From the UHGV virus genome UHGV-0077431: a stretch of DNA of 41,329 nucleotides. One strand, given 5' to 3'. The notes under the pieces were generated by a model, which had not been told where the DNA came from, did no database searches, and was given only the letters and a program-made list of their open reading frames with translations. This document shows positions 28 to 20,472 of the stretch, in pieces; position 1 is the stretch's first letter, and the number at the start of each line of letters is the position of its first letter. The translations under genes were made by a program, and so were the position numbers. Origin of the DNA: a virus.

Positions 28-2442
28 TTGTCTGGAGATTCAGGGGGCCAGTCTAAATTTGGTGTAAGTAGTAATACTGAAATTAAAGGAGGGTATCAGT
101 ACATTGAAATGAATGGTACCGCAGAATACTCAGTATTAAATGACGGTTATCAAATTGTTCAAATGGGTGGCGCGGCAAACCAGACTACCCTCAATAATGG
201 TGTGCTACAGGTTTATGGCGCAGCGAATGATCCCACGATTAAAGGCGGGCGCTTAATCGTTGAAAAAGATGGGATTACCGTCCTTGCCGCTATCGAAAAG
301 GGAGGATTACTGGAGGTTAAAGAGGGGGGATTAGCGATTGCGGTAGATCAGAAAGCAGGCGGTGCTATTAAAGCAAGCACGCGGGTCATGGAGGCATTCG
401 GAACAAACCGTCTCGGTCAGTTCGAAATCAAGAATGGTATTGCTAACAATATGCTGTTGGAAAACGGCGGAAGTTTGCGAGTTGAAGAAAATGACTTCGC
501 TTATAATACTACTGTAGATAGTGGCGGCTTACTGGAGGTTATGGATGGCGGGACTGTAACTGGCGTTGATAAAAAAGCAGGCGGAAAATTAATTGTCTCA
601 ACGAATGTGCTGGAAGTGAGTGGTACAAACAGTAAAGGCCAATTTAGTATAAAAGATGGTGTGTCAAAAAATTATGAACTGGATGATGGTTCCGGGCTCA
701 TTGTTATGGAGGACACGCAGGCCATTGATACTATCCTTGATGAGCATGCCACTATGCAATCGCTGGGAAAGGATACTGGTACGAAAGTGCAGGCAAATGC
801 GGTATATGATCTCGGTCGATCAGACCAGAATGGAAGTATCACGTATTCCTCTAAAGCCATCTCTGAAAATATGGTTATCAACAATGGCCGCGCTAATGTC
901 TGGGCTGGCACAATGGTTAACGTGTCAGTCAGAGGGAATGATGGCATTCTTGAGGTCATGAAGCCGCAAATAAATTATGCACCCGCTATGTTGGTGGGTA
1001 AGGTAGTGGTTTCTGAGGGCGCTTCTTTTAGAACGCATGGTGCCGTGGATACCAGCAAAGCGGACGTTTCGCTCGAAAATAGCGTATGGACCATCATTGC
1101 CGATATCACTACGACGAACCAAAACACCCTCCTCAACTTAGCCAACCTTGCGATGTCTGACGCAAATGTGATTATGATGGATGAGCCAGTGACTCGTTCA
1201 TCAGTGACGGCAAGTGCGGAAAATTTCATTACGTTGACCACCAATACCCTGTCGGGAAACGGCAATTTTTATATGCGTACCGATATGGCTAATCATCAGA
1301 GCGATCAGCTCAACGTCACCGGTCAGGCAACAGGTGATTTCAAAATATTCGTGACGGACACCGGTGCCAGCCCGGCAGCAGGAGATAGCCTTACACTGGT
1401 AACAACGGGCGGCGGTGATGCTGCATTTACGTTGGGCAATGCCGGAGGCGTTGTTGATATCGGTACGTATGAATATACCTTGCTGGATAATGGCAACCAT
1501 AGCTGGAGTCTGGCAGAGAATCGCGCGCAAATTACCCCTTCAACCACTGATGTGCTGAATATGGCGGCCGCACAACCGCTGGTATTTGATGCAGAACTGG
1601 ACACCGTGCGTGAGCGTCTTGGTAGCGTAAAAGGCGTTAGTTACGATACGGCGATGTGGAGTTCGGCAATTAACACCCGCAACAACGTGACCACTGATGC
1701 GGGAGCTGGTTTTGAGCAAACATTGACGGGCCTGACGCTCGGTATCGATAGCCGTTTCTCCCGTGAAGAAAGCAGTACAATTCGCGGCTTGTTCTTTGGT
1801 TACTCTCATTCTGATATTGGTTTTGATCGCGGCGGAAAAGGTAATATCGATAGCTATACCCTGGGGGCTTATGCCGGTTGGGAGCATCAGAACGGTGCCT
1901 ATGTTGATGGGGTGGTGAAAGTTGACCGTTTTGCCAACACCATCCATGGCAAGATGAGTAATGGGGCAACAGCGTTTGGCGATTACAATAGTAACGGCGC
2001 GGGTGCTCATGTTGAGAGCGGGTTCCGTTGGGTTGACGGATTGTGGAGTGTTAGACCCTATCTGGCCTTTACCGGCTTTACCACAGATGGTCAGGACTAC
2101 ACGTTATCAAACGGCATGCGCGCTGATGTGGGAAATACCCGGATATTACGCGCTGAAGTGGGAACGGCGGTAAGCTATCACATGGACCTGCAAAACGGTA
2201 CGACGCTGGAACCCTGGCTGAAAGCCGCCGTGCGTCAGGAATACGCCGATTCTAACCAGGTGAAAGTTAATGACGATGGCAAATTTAATAATGATGTGGC
2301 TGGAACCCGTGGCGTTTATCAGGCTGGGATAAGGTCATCGTTTACCCCGACGTTAAGCGGTCATTTGTCAGTCAGCTATGGCAATGGCGCAGGGGTAGAA
2401 TCGCCGTGGAATACCCAGGCGGGTGTGGTCTGGACGTTCTGA
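28..2442 (+). CDS. Autotransporter adhesin (AIDA-I/Ag43/YejO-like), C-terminal ~800 aa; N-terminal signal peptide region not present in this frame
   Basis: Passenger-type degenerate repeats rich in G/N/T/V; C-terminal beta-barrel-like region ending in aromatic residues (VWTF) before stop at 2440-2442. Frame has a TGA at 19-21 and the track start at 28 is TTG, so the gene is 5'-partial or disrupted. Confidence 0.8.
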   Translation: MSGDSGGQSKFGVSSNTEIKGGYQYIEMNGTAEYSVLNDGYQIVQMGGAANQTTLNNGVLQVYGAANDPTIKGGRLIVEKDGITVLAAIEKGGLLEVKEGGLAIAVDQKAGGAIKASTRVMEAFGTNRLGQFEIKNGIANNMLLENGGSLRVEENDFAYNTTVDSGGLLEVMDGGTVTGVDKKAGGKLIVSTNVLEVSGTNSKGQFSIKDGVSKNYELDDGSGLIVMEDTQAIDTILDEHATMQSLGKDTGTKVQANAVYDLGRSDQNGSITYSSKAISENMVINNGRANVWAGTMVNVSVRGNDGILEVMKPQINYAPAMLVGKVVVSEGASFRTHGAVDTSKADVSLENSVWTIIADITTTNQNTLLNLANLAMSDANVIMMDEPVTRSSVTASAENFITLTTNTLSGNGNFYMRTDMANHQSDQLNVTGQATGDFKIFVTDTGASPAAGDSLTLVTTGGGDAAFTLGNAGGVVDIGTYEYTLLDNGNHSWSLAENRAQITPSTTDVLNMAAAQPLVFDAELDTVRERLGSVKGVSYDTAMWSSAINTRNNVTTDAGAGFEQTLTGLTLGIDSRFSREESSTIRGLFFGYSHSDIGFDRGGKGNIDSYTLGAYAGWEHQNGAYVDGVVKVDRFANTIHGKMSNGATAFGDYNSNGAGAHVESGFRWVDGLWSVRPYLAFTGFTTDGQDYTLSNGMRADVGNTRILRAEVGTAVSYHMDLQNGTTLEPWLKAAVRQEYADSNQVKVNDDGKFNNDVAGTRGVYQAGIRSSFTPTLSGHLSVSYGNGAGVESPWNTQAGVVWTF

Positions 2443-2451
2443 TAACAGAAA

Positions 2452-2485
2452 ATAAACAGGCCGTGATGTGTCGCGGTCTGTTTAT
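2452..2485 (+). terminator. Hairpin downstream of autotransporter stop (about 12 bp stem with one G-U, U-rich 3' side)
   Basis: Inverted repeat ATAAACAGGCCG / CGGTCTGTTTAT immediately 3' of the CDS. Confidence 0.4.
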
Positions 2486-2503
2486 CGAATTAAATGCAGA
2501 TAT

Positions 2504-2534
2504 AAAAAAACCAACCTTTACGGTTGGTTTTCTT
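2504..2534. terminator. Bidirectional intrinsic terminator; on the minus strand it follows the tRNA-Pro 3' end
   Basis: Perfect 10 bp palindrome AAAACCAACC-tttac-GGTTGGTTTT flanked by A-run on one side and T-run on the other. Confidence 0.6.
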
Positions 2535-2543
2535 GGGATTTTT

Positions 2544-2588
2544 GGTCGGCACGAGAGGATTTGAACCTCCGACCCCCGACACCCCATG
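2544..2588 (-). other. 3' 45 nt fragment of a tRNA-Pro gene (anticodon loop to CCA end): att core copy of the prophage (P-core-B' junction)
   Basis: Reverse complement reads CATGGGGTGTCGGGGGTCGGAGGTTCAAATCCTCTCGTGCCGACCA, matching the 3' part of enterobacterial tRNA-Pro(GGG) as I recall it; the 5' half of the tRNA is absent upstream. Confidence 0.75.
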
Positions 2589-2790
2589 TCACTGCGATAA
2601 ATCCGCTGTAACCCTTGTAAATACTGGTGTTGCGACACATTGGACTGTATATGCAAACAGTGCATTTTTTGCAAAATCCGCACTATACACATCAATGGGT
2701 TACAGCTGGTTTTTCCCCATACTTCTTCACACGACCTACGTCTCAATCAACACGAGACTGAAGATTCGTAAACGAATCGACATGAAAGAA

Positions 2791-2810
2791 ATCAACAAAA
2801 TTCTGTTGAT
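2791..2810. promoter_or_regulatory. Inverted repeat ATCAACA-n6-TGTTGAT upstream of the HTH gene (candidate operator)
   Basis: Perfect 7 bp arms; an extra ATCAACA copy at 2747-2753. Confidence 0.3.
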
Positions 2811-2885
2811 TTTCTGTCGGGAGCGTGTTAACTTAAAATGAGACCCAAGAGTAATGGGGGTCTTGGACACACTGGAGATACAACT

Positions 2886-3245
2886 ATGTTAACGCCGTTT
2901 GGTAAGACAGTAAGAAAAATGCGCATAGACCTGGGGCTTACGCTTAAAAGCATGGCTGAGGCTATGGGTATGACCTCGTCTTATCTTTCAGCAATCGAAA
3001 CTGGTAAAAGGGCGGTCACTAAACCCGTGCTTGATAGCATCATTGGCTATCTGAATGCGGATGAAAAACAAAAAGAAAAGCTTATCAGTGCAGCTCGTGA
3101 CTCTCAGCAATCAGTAGAGATCAGCTTGTCAGGTAAGAACGACCATGCTCGTGAAGTCGCAATTGCGTTCGCTCGTAGTTTTGATGAGTTAAATGAAGAA
3201 GACTTCCGGAATTTACGACAGATTTTGAATCGAAAACAGCAGTAG
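2886..3245 (+). CDS. XRE-family helix-turn-helix transcriptional regulator
   Basis: HTH signature (LGLTLKSMAEAMGMTSSYLSAIETGKR); ATG at 2886 has GGAG 9 nt upstream (track ORF starts at 2838). Confidence 0.7.
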   Translation: MLTPFGKTVRKMRIDLGLTLKSMAEAMGMTSSYLSAIETGKRAVTKPVLDSIIGYLNADEKQKEKLISAARDSQQSVEISLSGKNDHAREVAIAFARSFDELNEEDFRNLRQILNRKQQ

Positions 3246-3253
3246 GAGGCATT

Positions 3254-3775
3254 TTGAGCGGACAAGATTATCGTGTACCCCCGCAGAACCGCGAATCAAT
3301 ACGTTCTATCGTCAGATCTCTGCGGAGCACCTTCGGTATTACAGGTCTGATGTTTCCTGTTATGGAGGTGATCGAGTTCGCATTGCCTCAGTTGATCCCA
3401 GATTTTGAACTCCATATCGGTGGGATGAAGGAAATGGGGGAGACGCACGGTCTCACCTACCCACAGGAACATTTATTGATTCTTCGTGAAGACATTTACG
3501 AGGGTGCTTTGAATGGGGTAGGGCGTGACAGGATGACTGCCGCACATGAACTGGGTCATCTTCTCATGCACAGGAACATTGCTTTCGCGCGTTCTGCTCC
3601 AGGGGTAAAAATCCGCCCTTTTGAGAGTAGTGAGTGGCAAGCCAAATGTTTCAGTGGTGAGCTATTAGTACCAGCTATTCATGCCAATGTTCTGAAAGGT
3701 ATGAGTGCTGAAAATGTAGCTGAGGCATGCGGAGTATCATTAGTGGCCGCACGATATCAGTTAGACAAAATGTAA
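3254..3775 (+). CDS. ImmA/IrrE-family (M78) zinc metallopeptidase
   Basis: HEXXH motif (AAHELGHLLMH); AGGAGG 4-5 nt upstream of a TTG start at 3254, directly after the HTH stop. Confidence 0.7.
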   Translation: MSGQDYRVPPQNRESIRSIVRSLRSTFGITGLMFPVMEVIEFALPQLIPDFELHIGGMKEMGETHGLTYPQEHLLILREDIYEGALNGVGRDRMTAAHELGHLLMHRNIAFARSAPGVKIRPFESSEWQAKCFSGELLVPAIHANVLKGMSAENVAEACGVSLVAARYQLDKM

Positions 3776-3933
3776 AAACCCCCTGCTTGGCGCCAACCAA
3801 TGCAAGGGGTCTTAAGGTGATGAATCCGAGAGGCGTCACCACCGTGAACAGCTTCAATAGACAGCCTGAAACTAACACCTTCAGGGAAGATGTTCAAGGG
3901 AAAAATCTCTCTTGGTAAGGAGGTGTTACATGA

Positions 3934-4083
3934 ATGAGTTTGAAATCTATCGCTTCGAAAGCGGCACCAAAAGGGTTCCGTTGGGTTTTCTGCCGTTACC
4001 GCAAGGTACGTGGGAAATCCGCAAAAGTCCTTGATGCTCATGATTATGGGTATGAGGCGTGGGCGTTCTTAGTTCGTTGCTAA
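3934..4083 (+). CDS. Small basic hypothetical protein (49 aa); alternative reading 3930..4034 (34 aa)
   Basis: Consensus SD AAGGAGGT at 3917-3924 followed by two ATGs in different frames; not in ORF track (under 60 aa). Confidence 0.3.
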   Translation: MSLKSIASKAAPKGFRWVFCRYRKVRGKSAKVLDAHDYGYEAWAFLVRC

Positions 4084-4130
4084 GAGAACCACTTAAGGCA
4101 CCTTCGGGTGTCTTATTCAAGACTTTATTC

Positions 4131-4155
4131 AAGGCACCATCAGGTGCCTTTTTCT
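4131..4155 (+). terminator. Intrinsic terminator (AAGGCACC-atca-GGTGCCTT + T-run); weaker related hairpin at 4094-4113
   Basis: Perfect 8 bp stem with T tract on plus strand, abutting the int stop codon. Confidence 0.6.
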
Positions 4156-5335
4156 ATGCCATTTTTATTTCTGCATGCGGTACTTCAACCCATTCAACAT
4201 GATTCTGGGTATAAATTTTTGTCGATTTTGCATCACTATGGGCCATCCTTGCCTGCGGATCGATACCTTGTCTTTCGAAAATATGAGCCGCCAGCGCTCT
4301 AATCTCGTGGAAAGTTGGCCTTTCTTTGATAGGTAATTCTGCCGCTACACCTATCCGGTCCCGCAGCTCTGAAAATGCCCTGCTCAAATAGTCAGGGGCC
4401 ACCTGTGTTGGGTGGTTAACTTCCTTGCTTATCGGATTGCTTCTCTTTTCCAGAAGCCGGTGAACAACATAAGGACTGGCCACATTGTCTCTGCTGTTGT
4501 CGATGATCTCTTTCAGGGCCCTGCCGATCGGAATAGCGACGTGTGAAGCCTCTTTGTGCTGCACTTTTTGCCGGTGAATGTAAAGCGTTCCGAATATGCC
4601 AGCCTCCTCCTGATCGAACCATACACAGCCGCAAACCCCTTCTTGAGGTTCCTTGATCGAGTACCGGATCCGGGAAACTTCCAGGCGCGCTTGCGTAGTT
4701 TGTATGGCAAGGTCCATTGCAGTCTTCAGCCAAGGTTCAGCAGCTGCATGTATGGCCAAGAACTGTTCCAAAGTGAGTCGCCGGCGGACCTTTTTATCGA
4801 CACGCCGCATTTTTTTCCGTGTTGCAGGGTTATCCATCATTAGCGATTCATCAACAGCATAAGAGAATAGCTTTTTCAGGAAGCTAACTTTTCGGTTCTG
4901 AACATTGGCCGACGATTCAGAATGGTAATTTCGTATGTAGGCATTTACGTGCTCAAGCTCAATATCGCATGCGGGTATGTTATTAAAAAATTCTTTAACC
5001 CTGATGGCATCATTATTCCAATCGTCAAGTGTGCTTTTAGACGGCTGCTCATCTTTGATCGCTCTCTCCATAATGCGATCAACATGTTCAGAAAACGGGT
5101 GGGCTTCACCATTCAGCCCTCCCGATTCCCGAATTAATGAATCTATCGATGGTGTATTTTCAGGGCGCATCCTCAGGTTATATTCTCGGGCGATGGCGAT
5201 AGCCATTACTCGATCCGAACCGAGAGTTTTCTTTTTCCCAGTTATAAGCGTGAACTTATACACGCCACGATCTTTATCAAAAAAAAGATAATCAGGAAGG
5301 TGGCGGTATTCTTTTTTTCGTGGCCTTGCTGCCAT
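4154..5335 (-). CDS. int: Tyrosine integrase (lambda Int family)
   Basis: C-terminal catalytic region with H-x-x-R (FHEIRALAAH) and Y (KIYTQ); ATG at 5335 has GAGGG 6 nt upstream (track start at 5341 is TTG). Confidence 0.9.
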   Translation of the reverse strand: MAARPRKKEYRHLPDYLFFDKDRGVYKFTLITGKKKTLGSDRVMAIAIAREYNLRMRPENTPSIDSLIRESGGLNGEAHPFSEHVDRIMERAIKDEQPSKSTLDDWNNDAIRVKEFFNNIPACDIELEHVNAYIRNYHSESSANVQNRKVSFLKKLFSYAVDESLMMDNPATRKKMRRVDKKVRRRLTLEQFLAIHAAAEPWLKTAMDLAIQTTQARLEVSRIRYSIKEPQEGVCGCVWFDQEEAGIFGTLYIHRQKVQHKEASHVAIPIGRALKEIIDNSRDNVASPYVVHRLLEKRSNPISKEVNHPTQVAPDYLSRAFSELRDRIGVAAELPIKERPTFHEIRALAAHIFERQGIDPQARMAHSDAKSTKIYTQNHVEWVEVPHAEIKMA

Positions 5336-5337
5336 GG

Positions 5338-5547
5338 TCAACCCTCAATTATTAACTGACGTACCGCCTGATTAACAATTGAGTCAACTCCCCACTTTTC
5401 GGTTTCATAGACAAAAACTGAACCATCTACAATCCTTCCCATGAGTAATCCGTTTTCGACCCAACGTTTAATTGTACGGTTGTCAGGAATGGAGTCTTTG
5501 GTAAATTCGCGCTTACTCCAGAGACTCGCTTTCATTAGCTTTGCCAT
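5338..5547 (-). CDS. xis: Excisionase (lambda Xis-like)
   Basis: Motifs RTIKRWVENG and DGSVFVYETEKW resemble lambda Xis; ATG at 5547 has AAGGA 4 nt upstream; stop adjoins int start. Confidence 0.7.
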   Translation of the reverse strand: MAKLMKASLWSKREFTKDSIPDNRTIKRWVENGLLMGRIVDGSVFVYETEKWGVDSIVNQAVRQLIIEG

Positions 5548-11112: not shown

Positions 11113-11300
11113 AACAGGAGTTTAACTGCGGCTAGGGTCAGACCTGTGATTGTAAAGATCGCACCAACTATCGACCAAGTCTGAATCCTGAGTTCCTTTT
11201 GTAGGTCTTCTCGTGTCGCGTAATTAGACTTGATAACAGCAACATCAGTCTTAATGGACGCGATATCTACCTCAAGCTGCCTAACTCTTGCTTCAAGCAT
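11109..11300 (-). CDS. Small coiled-coil protein with C-terminal transmembrane helix (63 aa)
   Basis: GGAGGTGA 5 nt before ATG at 11300; heptad-like [23 protein letters not shown] then hydrophobic [22 protein letters not shown]. Track ORF extends to 11423. Confidence 0.55.
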
Positions 11301-11367
11301 ATCATCACCTCCGCCATCTCCGCCTCGTCGTGTTATTGCAGGTAGTTCACTATTAAATGGTACTACA

Positions 11368-11715
11368 TTATTTTGCGGCGTCGGCATTTTTTTCATCTTC
11401 CGTTTTTGCCGGGAATTTTTCATTTACCCAGTTAAGAACTGAAAACGCATTTATATGTGTTTCATTTCCACAATTGTTGCATATTAGTGAAAAGTAATAC
11501 TGGTTAGCAGTATCGGAATAAATGCTTTTTTCAGTAAAAACATTTACATAACTACCAAGCGCCATAGTGCATGGCATTCCAACACTCGCACTGACTTGAG
11601 GCACCGTTAACCTGTCATGCCCACATAGCGTGCATTTTAGATATATATTCTTTTCTGAGAAGTAAGAGACTAACATGTCCATGTTGATCCTTTCGAACCC
11701 CTGTTCACTCGCCAT
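11368..11715 (-). CDS. Cys-rich putative zinc-binding protein (115 aa), first gene downstream of cI
   Basis: CTLCGH ... CNNCGN motifs; GAGGA 8 nt before ATG. Confidence 0.55.
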
Positions 11716-11731
11716 TCACATATCCTCAGAG

Positions 11732-12466
11732 TTAAAGTCGATTATATTTAATTGACTCATGAATCAATGCCTTACCCATGACATAAAGCTGATCCTGATT
11801 CGCCTCATTGATGTACCACTTTTCATATGCAGAGTTATCAGACAGAACAGCGAGCTTGTCACCTTGCATCTGTAGGCGCTTAACATGAAACGTCTTACCG
11901 TATACGAAAGAGTAAACACCGTCGGTCTGGAAGTGACGAACTGAGATGTCGACGAATAGTCGATCACCAGAAACGAGGGTTGGTGACATACTGTCGCCGT
12001 TAACAGTCATGACCTTCACATCTTCTGGATCGCGATTTCCAAAAAGCACTCGGGCATGTTCAGTCGTGAACTCAATGGCGTACAAGACTTCAACATAGTC
12101 AGAAAGCATGTAGGTGCCAGGTCCAGCACTGACAGATAAATCCAGAACTTCAACGCGATAAACATCCTGCTCTGGCTTATTAACCATGCGTTTCACTTCC
12201 CCTGTATCTGTTGGCTCACCAACACCGTATTCCAGCCATTCGGCACGTACACCAAGTACTTTACTGAGAGCCACTATTTTCTGACTGTCCGGTATGGCCT
12301 GGGCGTTGAACCACTTCCAAACTCCAGGTGTAGTGATCTCCACCCCGGCTTTATTAAGCAGGTCTGCAAGGTTTTTGTTTCGTCCCCGACCAGTTAATCC
12401 AGCAAGTTGACAAACTTGCAGCAGCCTAGTCGTGAAACCTTCTTTCGTTTCGTCTCTCTTAACCAT
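11732..12466 (-). CDS. cI: CI-type prophage repressor (HTH + LexA-like S24 peptidase domain)
   Basis: C-terminal VNGDSMSPT...HVKRL (Ser/Lys dyad context); divergent from cro across an operator-rich spacer. Confidence 0.9.
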   Translation of the reverse strand: MVKRDETKEGFTTRLLQVCQLAGLTGRGRNKNLADLLNKAGVEITTPGVWKWFNAQAIPDSQKIVALSKVLGVRAEWLEYGVGEPTDTGEVKRMVNKPEQDVYRVEVLDLSVSAGPGTYMLSDYVEVLYAIEFTTEHARVLFGNRDPEDVKVMTVNGDSMSPTLVSGDRLFVDISVRHFQTDGVYSFVYGKTFHVKRLQMQGDKLAVLSDNSAYEKWYINEANQDQLYVMGKALIHESIKYNRL

Positions 12467-19419: not shown

Positions 19420-20472
19420 ATGAAAAATACTGTAAATATAAACAGTGTTGAGCTTATCAACGCTGACTGCCTGCAATACCTCGCTACCCTCCCAGATAAC
19501 ACCATCGACCTTATTGTTACGGATCCGCCTTATTTTAAGGTGAAGCCGAACGGCTGGGATAATCAGTGGAACGGTGACGCCGACTATCTTCGATGGCTTG
19601 ATATGTGTCTTGCCCAGTTCTGGCGAGTGCTTAAGCCTGCCGGCAGCCTGTATTTGTTTTCAGGTCACCGACTTGCATCCGATATTGAGATCATGATGCG
19701 TGAACGCTTCAACGTTATGAACCACATTATCTGGGCGAAGCCATCAGGGCGTTGGAACGGTTGTAATAAAGAAAGCCTGCGCTCTTACTTCCCCGCGACG
19801 GAACGCATCCTTTTCGCTGAGCATTATCAGGGGCCATATAATCCGAAAAGCGACGGATTTGCTGAGAAAAGCAACGAGGTCAAACAGCACGTCATGGCTC
19901 CGTTAATCACCTACTTTCGTGATGCACGAGCCGAACTGGGGGTCACGTCCAGGCAAATAGCTGACGCCACCGGAAAGAAAAATATGGCGTCTCACTGGTT
20001 CGGTACCAGTCAGTGGCAACTACCAAACGAGCAGGATTACGAAAAGCTGCAGGAATTGTTCACTCAGATCGCCATTGAGAAGCACCGCGCCTCTGAACTC
20101 AAAGCACCGCATCACCAGCTGGTGGCCACATGGCATTCGTTGAACCGGAAATACCTTGATCTGCTGGAAGAGTACAAATCTCTTCGGCGGCATTTCTCTG
20201 TGACAGTAGCCGTGCCCTATACAGACGTCTGGACACATAAACCCGTCCAGTTCTATCCAGGCAAACACCCGTGCGAAAAGCCCGCTGATATGTTGCGGCA
20301 AATCATCAACGCCAGCAGCAGGCCCGGCGATGTGGTAGCTGATTTCTTTATGGGCTCGGGATCAACTGTTAAAGCAGCCATTGAACTGGGCCGCCAGGCT
20401 ATCGGCGTAGAACTGGAAGAGGAACGTTTCAACCAGACGGTAAGTGAGGTAAGGCAGCTGGCAGGGGAATAA
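19420..20472 (+). CDS. DNA methyltransferase, beta-class amino-MTase (N6-adenine or N4-cytosine), orphan
   Basis: N-terminal DPPY motif (IVTDPPYF), C-terminal FxGxG AdoMet motif (FFMGSGST); no endonuclease gene adjacent. Confidence 0.85.
   Translation: MKNTVNINSVELINADCLQYLATLPDNTIDLIVTDPPYFKVKPNGWDNQWNGDADYLRWLDMCLAQFWRVLKPAGSLYLFSGHRLASDIEIMMRERFNVMNHIIWAKPSGRWNGCNKESLRSYFPATERILFAEHYQGPYNPKSDGFAEKSNEVKQHVMAPLITYFRDARAELGVTSRQIADATGKKNMASHWFGTSQWQLPNEQDYEKLQELFTQIAIEKHRASELKAPHHQLVATWHSLNRKYLDLLEEYKSLRRHFSVTVAVPYTDVWTHKPVQFYPGKHPCEKPADMLRQIINASSRPGDVVADFFMGSGSTVKAAIELGRQAIGVELEEERFNQTVSEVRQLAGE

Follow-up and report, generated by a model that had tools for sequence, protein, structure and literature searches.

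Pairs of genes for a helix-turn-helix (HTH) regulator and an ImmA/IrrE-type peptidase are among the commonest gene pairs on mobile elements. Annotators mostly label them orphan regulators, or the antitoxin part of an unidentified system. The closest described systems are the ImmR/ImmA pair, in which ImmA is activated by a separate protein, RapI, and the CapH/CapP and DdrO/IrrE pairs. CapP consists of a peptidase, a central HTH and a C-terminal GAF domain, the latter providing half of the groove that senses single-stranded DNA (ssDNA) in CapP and IrrE; many, but not all, CapP proteins also have a cysteine-switch loop. Here we analysed a stretch of 41,329 nucleotides (nt) from the virus genome UHGV-0077431, referred to below as the window, in which an HTH-peptidase pair lies between the attachment (att) site and the integrase gene (int) of an Escherichia coli prophage. 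The two proteins are of the M78/XRE anti-repression kind; judged by profile and fold, they are closest to CapH/CapP, and judged by size and gene order to ImmR/ImmA.

The pair belongs to a larger cassette. As deduced from the DNA, its anatomy comprises an operon with a repressor, a GAF-less peptidase, a hairpin, a leader of about 125 nt, a protein of 49 amino acids and terminators. We propose, with moderate confidence, that this is a prophage-borne response module in which protease-gated derepression is combined with RNA-gated translation of a small basic effector. Whether it also stands for an undescribed and widespread class of prophage cargo, in which basic beta-proteins of about 47 amino acids, themselves a new family, are gated jointly by an ImmA-type protease/repressor switch and a novel leader RNA with a pseudoknot, is a more tentative proposal whose chance we put a little short of even. 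The features of the cassette, by position in the window, with the supporting evidence in brackets and with Shine-Dalgarno abbreviated to SD and open reading frame to ORF, are:

2746 to 2765, plus strand: partial second operator palindrome with 2 mismatches, 45 bp upstream of the perfect one (pattern search)
2789 to 2812, plus strand: operator candidate, AAATCAACA-N6-TGTTGATTT (inverted repeat; conserved same-type palindromes in other taxa)
2806 to 2834, plus strand: putative sigma-70 operon promoter, with -35 TTGATT, a 17-nt spacer and -10 TAACTT (2829-2834) after TG (sequence)
2886 to 3245, plus strand: XRE-family HTH repressor, 119 amino acids (Pfam HTH_31 and HTH_3, E-value about 1e-10)
3254 to 3775, plus strand: ImmA/IrrE-type M78 zinc metallopeptidase, 173 amino acids, TTG start (PF06114 match)
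3779 to 3809, plus strand: hairpin P1, immediately behind the stop codon of the peptidase gene, with TTGGCGCCAA (3787-3796) in the loop (folding, comparison)
3816 to 3942, plus strand: structured leader RNA (covariance model R2, 123 bits, E-value 5e-26, plus strand only)
3816 to 3840, plus strand: hairpin P2 with an 11-nt loop carrying element a', CCGAGAGG, at 3826-3833 (covariation)
3826 to 3833 with 3908 to 3915, plus strand: pseudoknot a':a, in which a' of the P2 loop pairs with element a, UCUCUUGG (cognate duplex test, covariation)
3842 to 3855 with 3886 to 3899, plus strand: helix P3, which encloses P4 (covariation)
3865 to 3885, plus strand: hairpin P4 with loop ACUAACACC (covariation)
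3908 to 3913 with 3918 to 3923, plus strand: anti-SD:SD hairpin P5, UCUCUU with AGGAGG (sequence)
3917 to 3925, plus strand: SD sequence of the small ORF, AAGGAGGTG, sequestered in P5 (sequence)
3930 to 3932, plus strand: out-of-frame AUG at optimal SD spacing, apparently a decoy, opening a 34-codon frame (comparison of leaders)
3934 to 4083, plus strand: small basic protein of 49 amino acids, phrog_33859 family, beta-rich (PHROG E-value 1.5e-26)

A first-pass annotation, made from the sequence, had listed the main elements of this region, all of which are present where it placed them, and had treated the 158 nt between the peptidase gene and the small ORF as empty save for the SD sequence. 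This last view did not survive comparison, which indicates that the spacer encodes a structured RNA whose conserved helices covary and which forms a pseudoknot with the region of ribosome binding. Leaders of distant taxa differ in sequence and are similar in fold. A covariance model, R2, built from eight enterobacterial leaders and rebuilt once, matches the leader in 44 of 100 non-redundant loci, in every case on the plus strand and directly upstream of the small ORF, and it has no match elsewhere in 919 kilobases (kb); among loci with more distant peptidases it matches only those that carry the same small-ORF family, and we accordingly do not count as members the leaders at the other such loci that look alike by eye. 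In the R2 alignment, 88.2% of the cells of P2, P3, P4 and the pseudoknot are paired, compared with 61.6% in shuffles, and compensatory cells, in which both sides have changed, number 368 as against 108 +/- 9.5. The covariation score is 0.648, compared with 0.203 after shuffling and at most 0.114 when the partners are slid. Since the pseudoknot had been left out of the model, the alignment was not fitted to it; it is nevertheless 86.5% paired, with compensatory change in seven of its eight pairs.

The pseudoknot joins the P2 loop to element a, which comprises the anti-SD strand plus the loop of P5 and ends 1-2 nt before the SD sequence. The same a':a relation is found in about 80 of 91 non-redundant leaders, in differing sequences (for example CCAAGAGG/CUCUCUUGG, ACCGGGAGGAC/CUCCUCCCGGA, GUGGAGCC/GGCUCCAG, CACUCGGGA/CUCCCGAGU and UGGGAUGG/UCAUCCCA). 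Cognate a':a duplexes have a mean energy of -12.3 kcal/mol and non-cognate ones of -9.05 kcal/mol, the cognate duplex being the better one in 86% of loci (p = 2e-13). The TTG...CAAG of P3 is invariant in most taxa, an A-rich linker separates the P3/P4 domain from P5, and the leader of the window folds with z = -2.49. G-U pairs are abundant, one pair of the pseudoknot being G-U in 31 of 44 sequences, and the plus strand can therefore be taken as the RNA strand. A variant leader, which we call type B, follows the same a':a logic and is not captured by the model. No Rfam 15 family matches the leader, either in window positions 2400-4400 at E <= 1 or in 14 related loci at gathering thresholds. In one related prophage (L129), a genuine C4 antisense RNA (RF01695, 80.9 bits) lies at 3498-3584 on the minus strand, about 1.3 kb upstream of the cassette leader, and two distinct RNA types thus coexist in that element.

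Ahead of the leader stands P1. Behind it the window has UCUU, where some lineages have U-tracts. The terminator scan did not call it as a terminator, and it is probably a leaky attenuator of read-through. Its loop is the TTGGCGCCAA palindrome that had been put forward as an operator, a role that we reject as stated, since the motif forms the loop of a conserved hairpin that stands behind the upstream stop codon in all lineages. The loop motif occurs in either orientation, as TTGGCG (L149, L053, L129), CGCCAAC (L135, L078, L080) or GGCAAC (L054, L146, L007), which is explained neither by a plain terminator nor by a one-strand RNA motif.

The SD sequence does precede ATG codons at 3930 and 3934, as the first-pass annotation had said, and of the 34- and 49-codon ORFs that it offered, only the longer one stands. 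The ratio of nonsynonymous to synonymous differences (pN/pS) is 0.16 in the 49-codon frame and 1.7-1.8 in the other two frames (458 sequence pairs), which indicates that the 49-codon ORF is a real gene under purifying selection. Its product matches phrog_33859, a family without assigned function, over its full length (residues 1-49). The homologues fall into 27 protein clusters; at 50% identity they give 90 representatives of 41-128 amino acids, among which the Rosetta-stone approach found no domain fusions. The AlphaFold2 (AF2) model has a beta-rich fold, with a predicted local distance difference test (pLDDT) score of 90, and the protein has no match in PADLOC, Pfam or NCBIfam. Annotation of the gene is sparse: RefSeq calls the 49-amino-acid ORF in one genome, it is unannotated in E. 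coli ECONIH4 and EC09, and in the Vibrio cholerae assembly it is uncalled and was found by translation. In this V. cholerae case (L253/L254, 3640-4900), the same cassette lies at a prophage edge, between the host gene fur and a phage S24 repressor, and the small ORF (VSLKKLGNKPAPAGFKWIFCRFRKVRGNSQKVLDAHKYGYQAWAFLVRCKK) is missed by the gene finder.

The 34-codon frame opened by the ATG at 3930 was rejected as a gene, given its pN/pS of 1.7-1.8 and a length that varies among relatives; it has no PHROG match. Its start codon is another matter. Of 66 leaders linked to an HTH/peptidase pair, about 50 have an ATG out of frame with the small ORF, at a distance of 2, 4 or 7 nt from its actual start codon, which may be ATG, GTG or TTG. 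The frame that it opens ranges from 2 to 41 codons and the encoded peptide is not conserved; the AUG alone is kept, and it looks like a decoy start.

The three genes travel together. We fetched 160 loci carrying the small protein from genomes and viral contigs and counted the triad over 167 loci, of which 104-110 have the HTH gene, the M78 peptidase gene, a gap of about 140-170 nt and the small ORF on one strand. These loci come from Enterobacterales, Vibrio, Acinetobacter, Pseudomonas, Xanthomonadales, and Beta- and Alphaproteobacteria. When the search was led by the peptidase instead, all 11 homologues of at least 45% identity on viral contigs were accompanied by the same small ORF, and all 18 inspected homologues of 32-44% identity had another small basic ORF, of a related motif or of the phrog_21154 type, 140-250 nt downstream. 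The flanks are unrelated: the 57 upstream neighbours fall into 55 clusters and the 59 downstream neighbours into 50, the downstream one often being a convergent integrase; no conserved fourth gene or divergent operon was found among these neighbours. In the window itself, the att arm and the host gene yejO lie upstream of the cassette. The first-pass annotation had seen no obvious effector beside the pair, which agrees with the absence of a large one and with the unrelated flanking genes; nor do other copies of the pair usually come with a known effector that this one has lost. It had named the small ORF or a distant locus as the possible regulated target. The first of these is likely, the small ORF being the only conserved partner of the HTH/peptidase pair; the second is unsupported, with no second good operator in the window outside the cassette.

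The repressor gene product matches the PADLOC capH profile over its full length (E-value 4.6e-10) and has a C-terminal helical extension like those of CapH, ImmR and DdrO. It is annotated in RefSeq as WP_001515622.1, and RefSeq has the same HTH and peptidase ORFs as those described here. The inverted repeat ATCAACA-N6-TGTTGAT at 2791-2810 is perfect and occurs only once in the window, and its right half holds the -35 element TTGATT (2806-2811). Other taxa keep a covarying palindrome of the same type at 75-95 nt ahead of the HTH start codon, where it also overlies the -35 element; in distant taxa both arms are altered, as in TCAACC..GGTTGA, ATAAACCAA..TTGGTTTAT and GATTAGCA..TGCUAATC (as DNA, GATTAGCA..TGCTAATC). 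This supports the earlier suggestion that the repeat is a good operator candidate for the HTH protein, and a search for operators in trans found no second convincing one outside the cassette in the window. A strict consensus scan did not call the promoter at 2806-2834; relatives have better -10 boxes (TATATT, TACATT, TAATAT) at the same spacing. Between promoter and start codon, the 5' untranslated region of the HTH gene contains a hairpin, GAGACCC...GGGGTCT, at 2841-2866, whose place is taken in relatives by other hairpins (AGACCTG/CAGGTCT in L117, GACCCATA/TATGGGTC in L017). Its 5' side contains CCAAGAG, which is complementary to the anti-SD element a.

The peptidase gene starts 8 nt after the HTH ORF in the same orientation. 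Its product matches PF06114 (Peptidase_M78) with an E-value of 3.6e-9 and 36.9 bits against a cutoff of 22, so that the HEXXH context on which the earlier assignment hinged passes the profile, and the same family is present in all peptidase homologues. Residues H98, E99, H102 and E127, that is, the HEXXH motif and the third zinc ligand Glu, are invariant in 27 diverse and 41 database homologues. The PADLOC capP profile matches with an E-value of 1.1e-10. The AF2 model (pLDDT 93) consists of the peptidase domain and a short helical, HTH-like tail, and its best Foldseek matches in the PDB are CapP (7t5t, E-value 1.7e-5) and IrrE (3dti, E-value 1.2e-3). The alignment extends over about 175 columns of CapP and IrrE chains of 243-278 residues and takes in only their peptidase-plus-HTH portion; as the model can be aligned with CapP, a chain of 278 residues, over no more than its initial 175 columns or so, the GAF domain is absent from the 173-residue protein, and the relatives are all of 150-200 amino acids. 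No cysteine lies between H102 and E127 in the peptidase of the window, and thus no cysteine-switch loop. Pfam, PADLOC, conserved residues and fold matches therefore agree with the first-pass reading of an XRE-HTH and ImmA/IrrE M78 pair. The PADLOC profiles of RmrA, the Rosmer antitoxin, give weak matches to both proteins. One homologue of 303 amino acids (P0227) is an M78 peptidase fused to HTH_31, like RmrA or IrrE-type fusions, and this supports a functional coupling of the HTH protein and the peptidase.

These parts suggest the following course of events, which is the reading we favour. A dimer of the repressor would bind the palindrome and turn off its own operon until a stress or infection signal activates the peptidase. 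The active peptidase would then probably cut the C-terminal region of the repressor, on the precedent of ImmA-ImmR, CapP-CapH and IrrE-DdrO. Loss of the repressor would release a burst of transcription through the leaky P1 hairpin. The leader would be the second gate: its SD sequence would be held in the local anti-SD hairpin P5, and pairing of the P2 loop with the anti-SD strand (a':a) would compete with P5 and so decide whether the SD sequence is exposed, while the out-of-frame AUG at optimal spacing would cut the output further. Such stacked restraints on synthesis suggest that the small protein is potent at low dose. It may be a dose-sensitive effector, either growth-inhibitory or a regulatory protein that binds nucleic acid or the ribosome, and it would be released only upon strong and sustained activation. 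The cassette would then be a stress- or infection-triggered module of the abortive-infection or three-component toxin-antitoxin type.

Several observations weigh against this reading. CapP senses ssDNA by means of its GAF domain and cysteine switch, and the peptidase has neither. For the small protein, no fold match turned up in the PDB or BFVD, and it is without the hydrophobic segment typical of type I toxins. In the leader, the conserved CACC of the P4 loop could capture the GGUG of the SD sequence once P5 opens, a clamp like that of c4; this pairing of the P4 loop with the SD sequence (b':b) is 75% conserved and shows no compensatory change. In E. coli ECONIH4 (L013), the closest complete genome at 99.5% identity, the peptidase is annotated as truncated (3254 to 3637, 127 amino acids), and the cassette can therefore decay without obvious harm. 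Finally, the leader and small ORF also occur behind unrelated genes, without an M78 peptidase, and the small protein is therefore not strictly tied to the HTH/peptidase pair. It might be a regulator, for example a peptidase activator, or part of a general operon-end module.

These other settings are varied, and the genes that precede the leader and small ORF there are often downstream of cI or of morons of the RnlAB or HipA type. The unit is found directly after genes for a CAP12/PCTIR TIR protein, an AAA_21 (AbiEii-like) ATPase, a STAND NTPase and the large subunit of a class I ribonucleotide reductase (L005/L006, 4748-6141; L140, 3469-5150; L028, 3626-5040; L072/L073/L079). Elsewhere, a family of 175-210 amino acids without Pfam match (188 in one example) replaces the HTH protein and peptidase, about 600 nt upstream of the small ORF and with a variant leader between (L033, L037, L045, L052, L062, L155, L166 and others). 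The N-terminus of this family resembles an integrase SAM-like domain and its C-terminus has the motif LPxDLTxxEAERIAxIIKAYA; upstream of it lie cI (S24), RnlB, HipA, DUF4145 or YebC genes.

Instead of an effector, the small protein could be a component of the switch, as a sensor, activator or inhibitor of the peptidase or as a co-repressor, with outputs in trans such as cleavage by the peptidase of the XRE repressors of co-resident prophages or repression of other promoters by the HTH protein. An accessory factor is plausible since the peptidase is without the GAF domain and ssDNA groove of CapP and IrrE, and RapI offers a precedent in the case of ImmA; the small ORF also co-diverges with the peptidase, diverged peptidases having diverged small ORFs, and very low, tightly gated expression fits a regulator. 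We nevertheless consider this account unlikely: the small ORF and its leader also occur without any M78 peptidase, there is no second good operator in the window and no conserved fourth gene, and a switch without an output would be hard to maintain as mobile cargo. A different alternative assigns the action to the RNA. The 5' part of the leader (P2 with or without P3/P4) might be processed or terminated to a stable small RNA that pairs in trans with the ribosome-binding site (RBS) region of the small ORF, as c4 and IsrK do, the target being its own mRNA or that of an incoming related element and the result RNA-based immunity or cross-talk. A hairpin loop that can pair with the sequence around the RBS of a small ORF further along its own transcript follows the logic of c4/icd and IsrK/orf45, the a':a pairing is lineage-specific in the way that immunity specificity is, and the enterobacterial leaders have a second loop, UAACACC, that could pair with GGUGUUA across the SD sequence. 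This second pairing, however, is without covariation, no Rfam C4, IsrK or c4-related motif matches the leader even at E <= 1, the stretch from P4 to the SD sequence has no evident signal for termination or processing, and the genuine C4 RNA of L129 lies elsewhere in its prophage. Covariation alone cannot separate action in cis from action in trans, and taking these points together we regard a trans-acting RNA as quite unlikely.

The restraints on the small ORF would also suit a selfish addiction (toxin-antitoxin) module that stabilises the prophage, with the small protein as toxin, the RNA and repressor as layers of antidote and no role in defence or stress. SD sequestration, a decoy AUG and a leaky hairpin resemble type I toxin mRNAs, COG2856-Xre pairs have been predicted as parts of three-component toxin-antitoxin systems, both proteins have weak PADLOC matches to RmrA, and the cassette is scattered as a mobile element would be, being present in 13 of 5426 complete E. 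coli genomes. Yet the small protein lacks both hydrophobic character and the fold of any known toxin, no antisense promoter (promoter scan) or unstable antitoxin is evident, and a truncated peptidase is tolerated in ECONIH4. This makes addiction as the sole function markedly unlikely, although toxin-antitoxin and defence functions are not mutually exclusive. Lastly, the features of the spacer might act on the DNA, in line with much of the first-pass view, with TTGGCGCCAA and the GGTGATG/CGTCACC repeat as operators and TTG...TAnnnT as an internal promoter. Covariation in a palindrome can also arise from co-evolution of a dimeric protein and the site that it binds, taxa differ in the orientation of the P1 loop motif, and the TTG after P2 and the TA-rich P4 loop loosely resemble -35 and -10 boxes. 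Neither a promoter nor an operator, however, explains why the P2 loop covaries in antiparallel fashion with a site about 80 nt away, why 'TTGnnn' covaries with 'nnnCAA' 40-100 nt downstream as P3, or why the many G-U pairs are found on the plus strand only. We rejected an internal sigma-70 promoter of the form TTGnnn ... TAnnnT, whose bases covary as P3 and the P4 loop; the distance between its -35 and -10 boxes is inconsistent (15-21 nt) and the promoter scan was empty. A DNA-level reading of the spacer is thus very unlikely, and we put next to no weight on it.

The setting of the cassette in the prophage is defined by the following features of the window:

2543 to 2588, minus strand: 3' half of a tRNA gene, att core on the attL side (read directly from the sequence)
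2589 to 2725, no strand: phage attachment-arm DNA, outside the cassette (alignment with the sister CX21 prophage, L003)
4095 to 4114, plus strand: weak terminator-like hairpin T1, inside the segment common to the second E. coli copy, which ends at 4117 (sequence)
4131 to 4153, plus strand: intrinsic terminator T2, an 8-bp stem and T-run that abuts the int stop codon (terminator scan)
4154 to 5341, minus strand: integrase gene, facing the att site

The window is a piece of E. coli chromosome, and the host autotransporter gene yejO ends at 2442. The tRNA 3' half, which we take to be that of the proL tRNA-Pro from its neighbourhood with yejO, marks the integration site beside this gene and lies outside the cassette; ARAGORN finds no whole tRNA in the window, and the segment is identical in the junction of the cassette-less CX21 prophage. 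To the right of att extends a lambdoid, Mu-tail-like prophage of about 40 kb, which has its own immunity switch, a LexA-family S24 repressor (cI-like, 11218 to 11937) and a cro-like gene (12007 to 12264). The CX21 sister prophage has the same yejO-att-int junction; it matches the window from 2440 to about 2725 and then passes directly to int, so that the inserted unit amounts to about 2726 to 4153. An independent second copy of the cassette is present in E. coli IPCEC31, which has window positions 2712-4117 in common at 89.5% identity. The full junction of the window occurs in only 5 of 5426 complete E. coli genomes, and the 2712-4117 segment, at the same identity, in 8 others, where it lies in a different, degraded prophage. 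The absence from CX21 and the boundaries of the second-locus copy define a mobile unit of about 2726 to 4117 or 4153, which contains the promoter, the HTH and peptidase genes, the spacer, the small ORF and a terminator. Because a sister prophage at the same site is without the whole unit, the cassette is self-contained, horizontally mobile cargo between the att arm and int. The first-pass annotation had placed cargo at this junction, in agreement with CX21; its insert, drawn from 2589, holds for about 2726 to 4153, and the first part, 2589-2725, is attachment arm common to the cassette-less phage. Of the tandem terminators that it described, both hairpins are present and only the second (4131-4150) passes the terminator scan, the one at 4095-4114 failing it.

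The att arm itself contains a LexA-box-like sequence, CTGTATATGCAAACAG, at 2645-2660, in the part common to the cassette-less CX21 phage. Sites of the form CTGT-N8-ACAG number three in the window (2645-2660, 11991-12006 and 19430-19445), compared with 0.48 expected by chance, and the one at 11991-12006 lies exactly between the cI-like and cro-like genes of the prophage. In E. coli EC09 (L001), RefSeq has a 125-amino-acid 'hypothetical protein' at 4067 to 4444, corresponding approximately to window 2466-2843, which crosses the tRNA fragment and the att arm, reaches into the cassette promoter and is probably a spurious call.

One large clade of HTH and ImmA/IrrE pairs, then, is always accompanied by a third gene, usually unannotated, which is preceded by a conserved structured RNA outside Rfam. 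This gives orphan HTH-peptidase pairs a concrete, testable output, adds a new candidate riboregulator with unusually clear covariation and a pseudoknot onto the RBS, and defines a new small-protein family in prophages of Escherichia, Klebsiella, Serratia, Yersinia and Vibrio cholerae. Both the RNA and the small protein stand a good chance of being new families in their own right that deserve experimental study. The leader RNA may itself be a sensor, that is, a riboregulator for a cellular or phage cue, and the small protein may prove to be an effector of a new kind, with nucleic acid or the ribosome as its target. If the proposal of an infection- or damage-triggered effector is true, the cassette would be a compact new defence or stress module and also a useful two-key (protease AND RNA) expression switch.

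How the cassette relates to described systems differs from part to part, and our literature search on the HTH-peptidase-small-ORF triad, its leader or the small protein found only general work on ImmA, CapP, IrrE and COG2856. In ImmR/ImmA of Bacillus subtilis ICEBs1 and phage phi105, as here, the operon has an XRE repressor gene first and then the gene for a GAF-less COG2856/M78 peptidase of about 170 amino acids. The likeness extends to a presumably auto-repressed operon and to the anti-repression expected through proteolysis of the repressor; in the present case, the peptidase gene is directly downstream of and co-oriented with the XRE gene, and a conserved palindrome overlies the -35 element. 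The pair does not appear to control excision or lytic genes of its own element, which has a separate cI/cro region, a sister phage without the cassette and no divergent operon. In contrast to ImmR/ImmA, the cassette has a proteobacterial host, is mobile cargo between att and int, and has an operon that extends into a structured leader and a conserved 49-amino-acid ORF.

In profile and in fold, the cassette proteins match best to CapH/CapP, which regulate CBASS and further defence operons, and to the DdrO/IrrE pair of Deinococcus. The zinc ligands are alike (H97, E98, H101 and E128 in CapP; H98, E99, H102 and E127 here), as is the C-terminal extension of CapH and of the cassette HTH protein. 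Unlike CapP and IrrE, the cassette peptidase has no GAF domain, and thus no ssDNA groove, and no cysteine-switch loop. Furthermore, CapH/CapP lies upstream of and divergent from the defence operon that it regulates, whereas the 57 upstream neighbours of the cassette are unrelated, no divergent defence operon is present, and only the leader and small ORF are conserved, downstream on the same strand.

For the leader, the nearest parallels are the c4 antisense RNA with icd-ant of P1/P7 and IsrK with orf45-anrP of Gifsy-1. In c4/icd, the RNA has a hairpin loop that can base-pair next to the RBS of a small ORF encoded on that very transcript. IsrK/orf45 follows the same plan. The cassette leader shares with these prophage RNAs a loop complementary to the RBS region, a target small ORF on the same transcript and alternative structures that would decide translation. 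It differs from them in its arrangement of P2, the P3/P4 domain and P5, in having a single proven pairing, and in that no antirepressor gene follows the small ORF; neither the C4 (RF01695) nor the IsrK (RF01394) model matches it, in window 2400-4400 at E <= 1 or in the 14 related loci. The leader thus appears to resemble c4 and IsrK in how it works, not in family membership.

In type I toxin mRNAs (hok, tisB, zorO, dinQ, aapA1), the SD sequence is sequestered by an upstream anti-SD in an elaborate leader, and translation is very low. The cassette has in common with them a small ORF whose SD sequence is sequestered in the leader, with extra devices that would lower translation. It differs in having no evident gene for an antisense RNA, in its protein, which is basic and hydrophilic and not a membrane peptide, and in that transcription is tied to a protease/repressor switch.

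Makarova 2009 predicted three-component COG2856-Xre-toxin systems. In these, and in RosmerTA (RmrT with the HTH-M78 fusion RmrA), an HTH and an M78 protein lie beside a putative toxin on mobile elements, much as in the cassette. Beside the pair described here we found no toxin of a recognised family (RmrT, RelE or PIN). The cassette also departs from these systems in having separate HTH and peptidase proteins and a regulatory RNA before the third gene. The related GAF-less ImmA peptidases found across bacteria, each with its own small ORF, suggest that this three-component design is general and that annotation has missed it because the third gene is rarely called.

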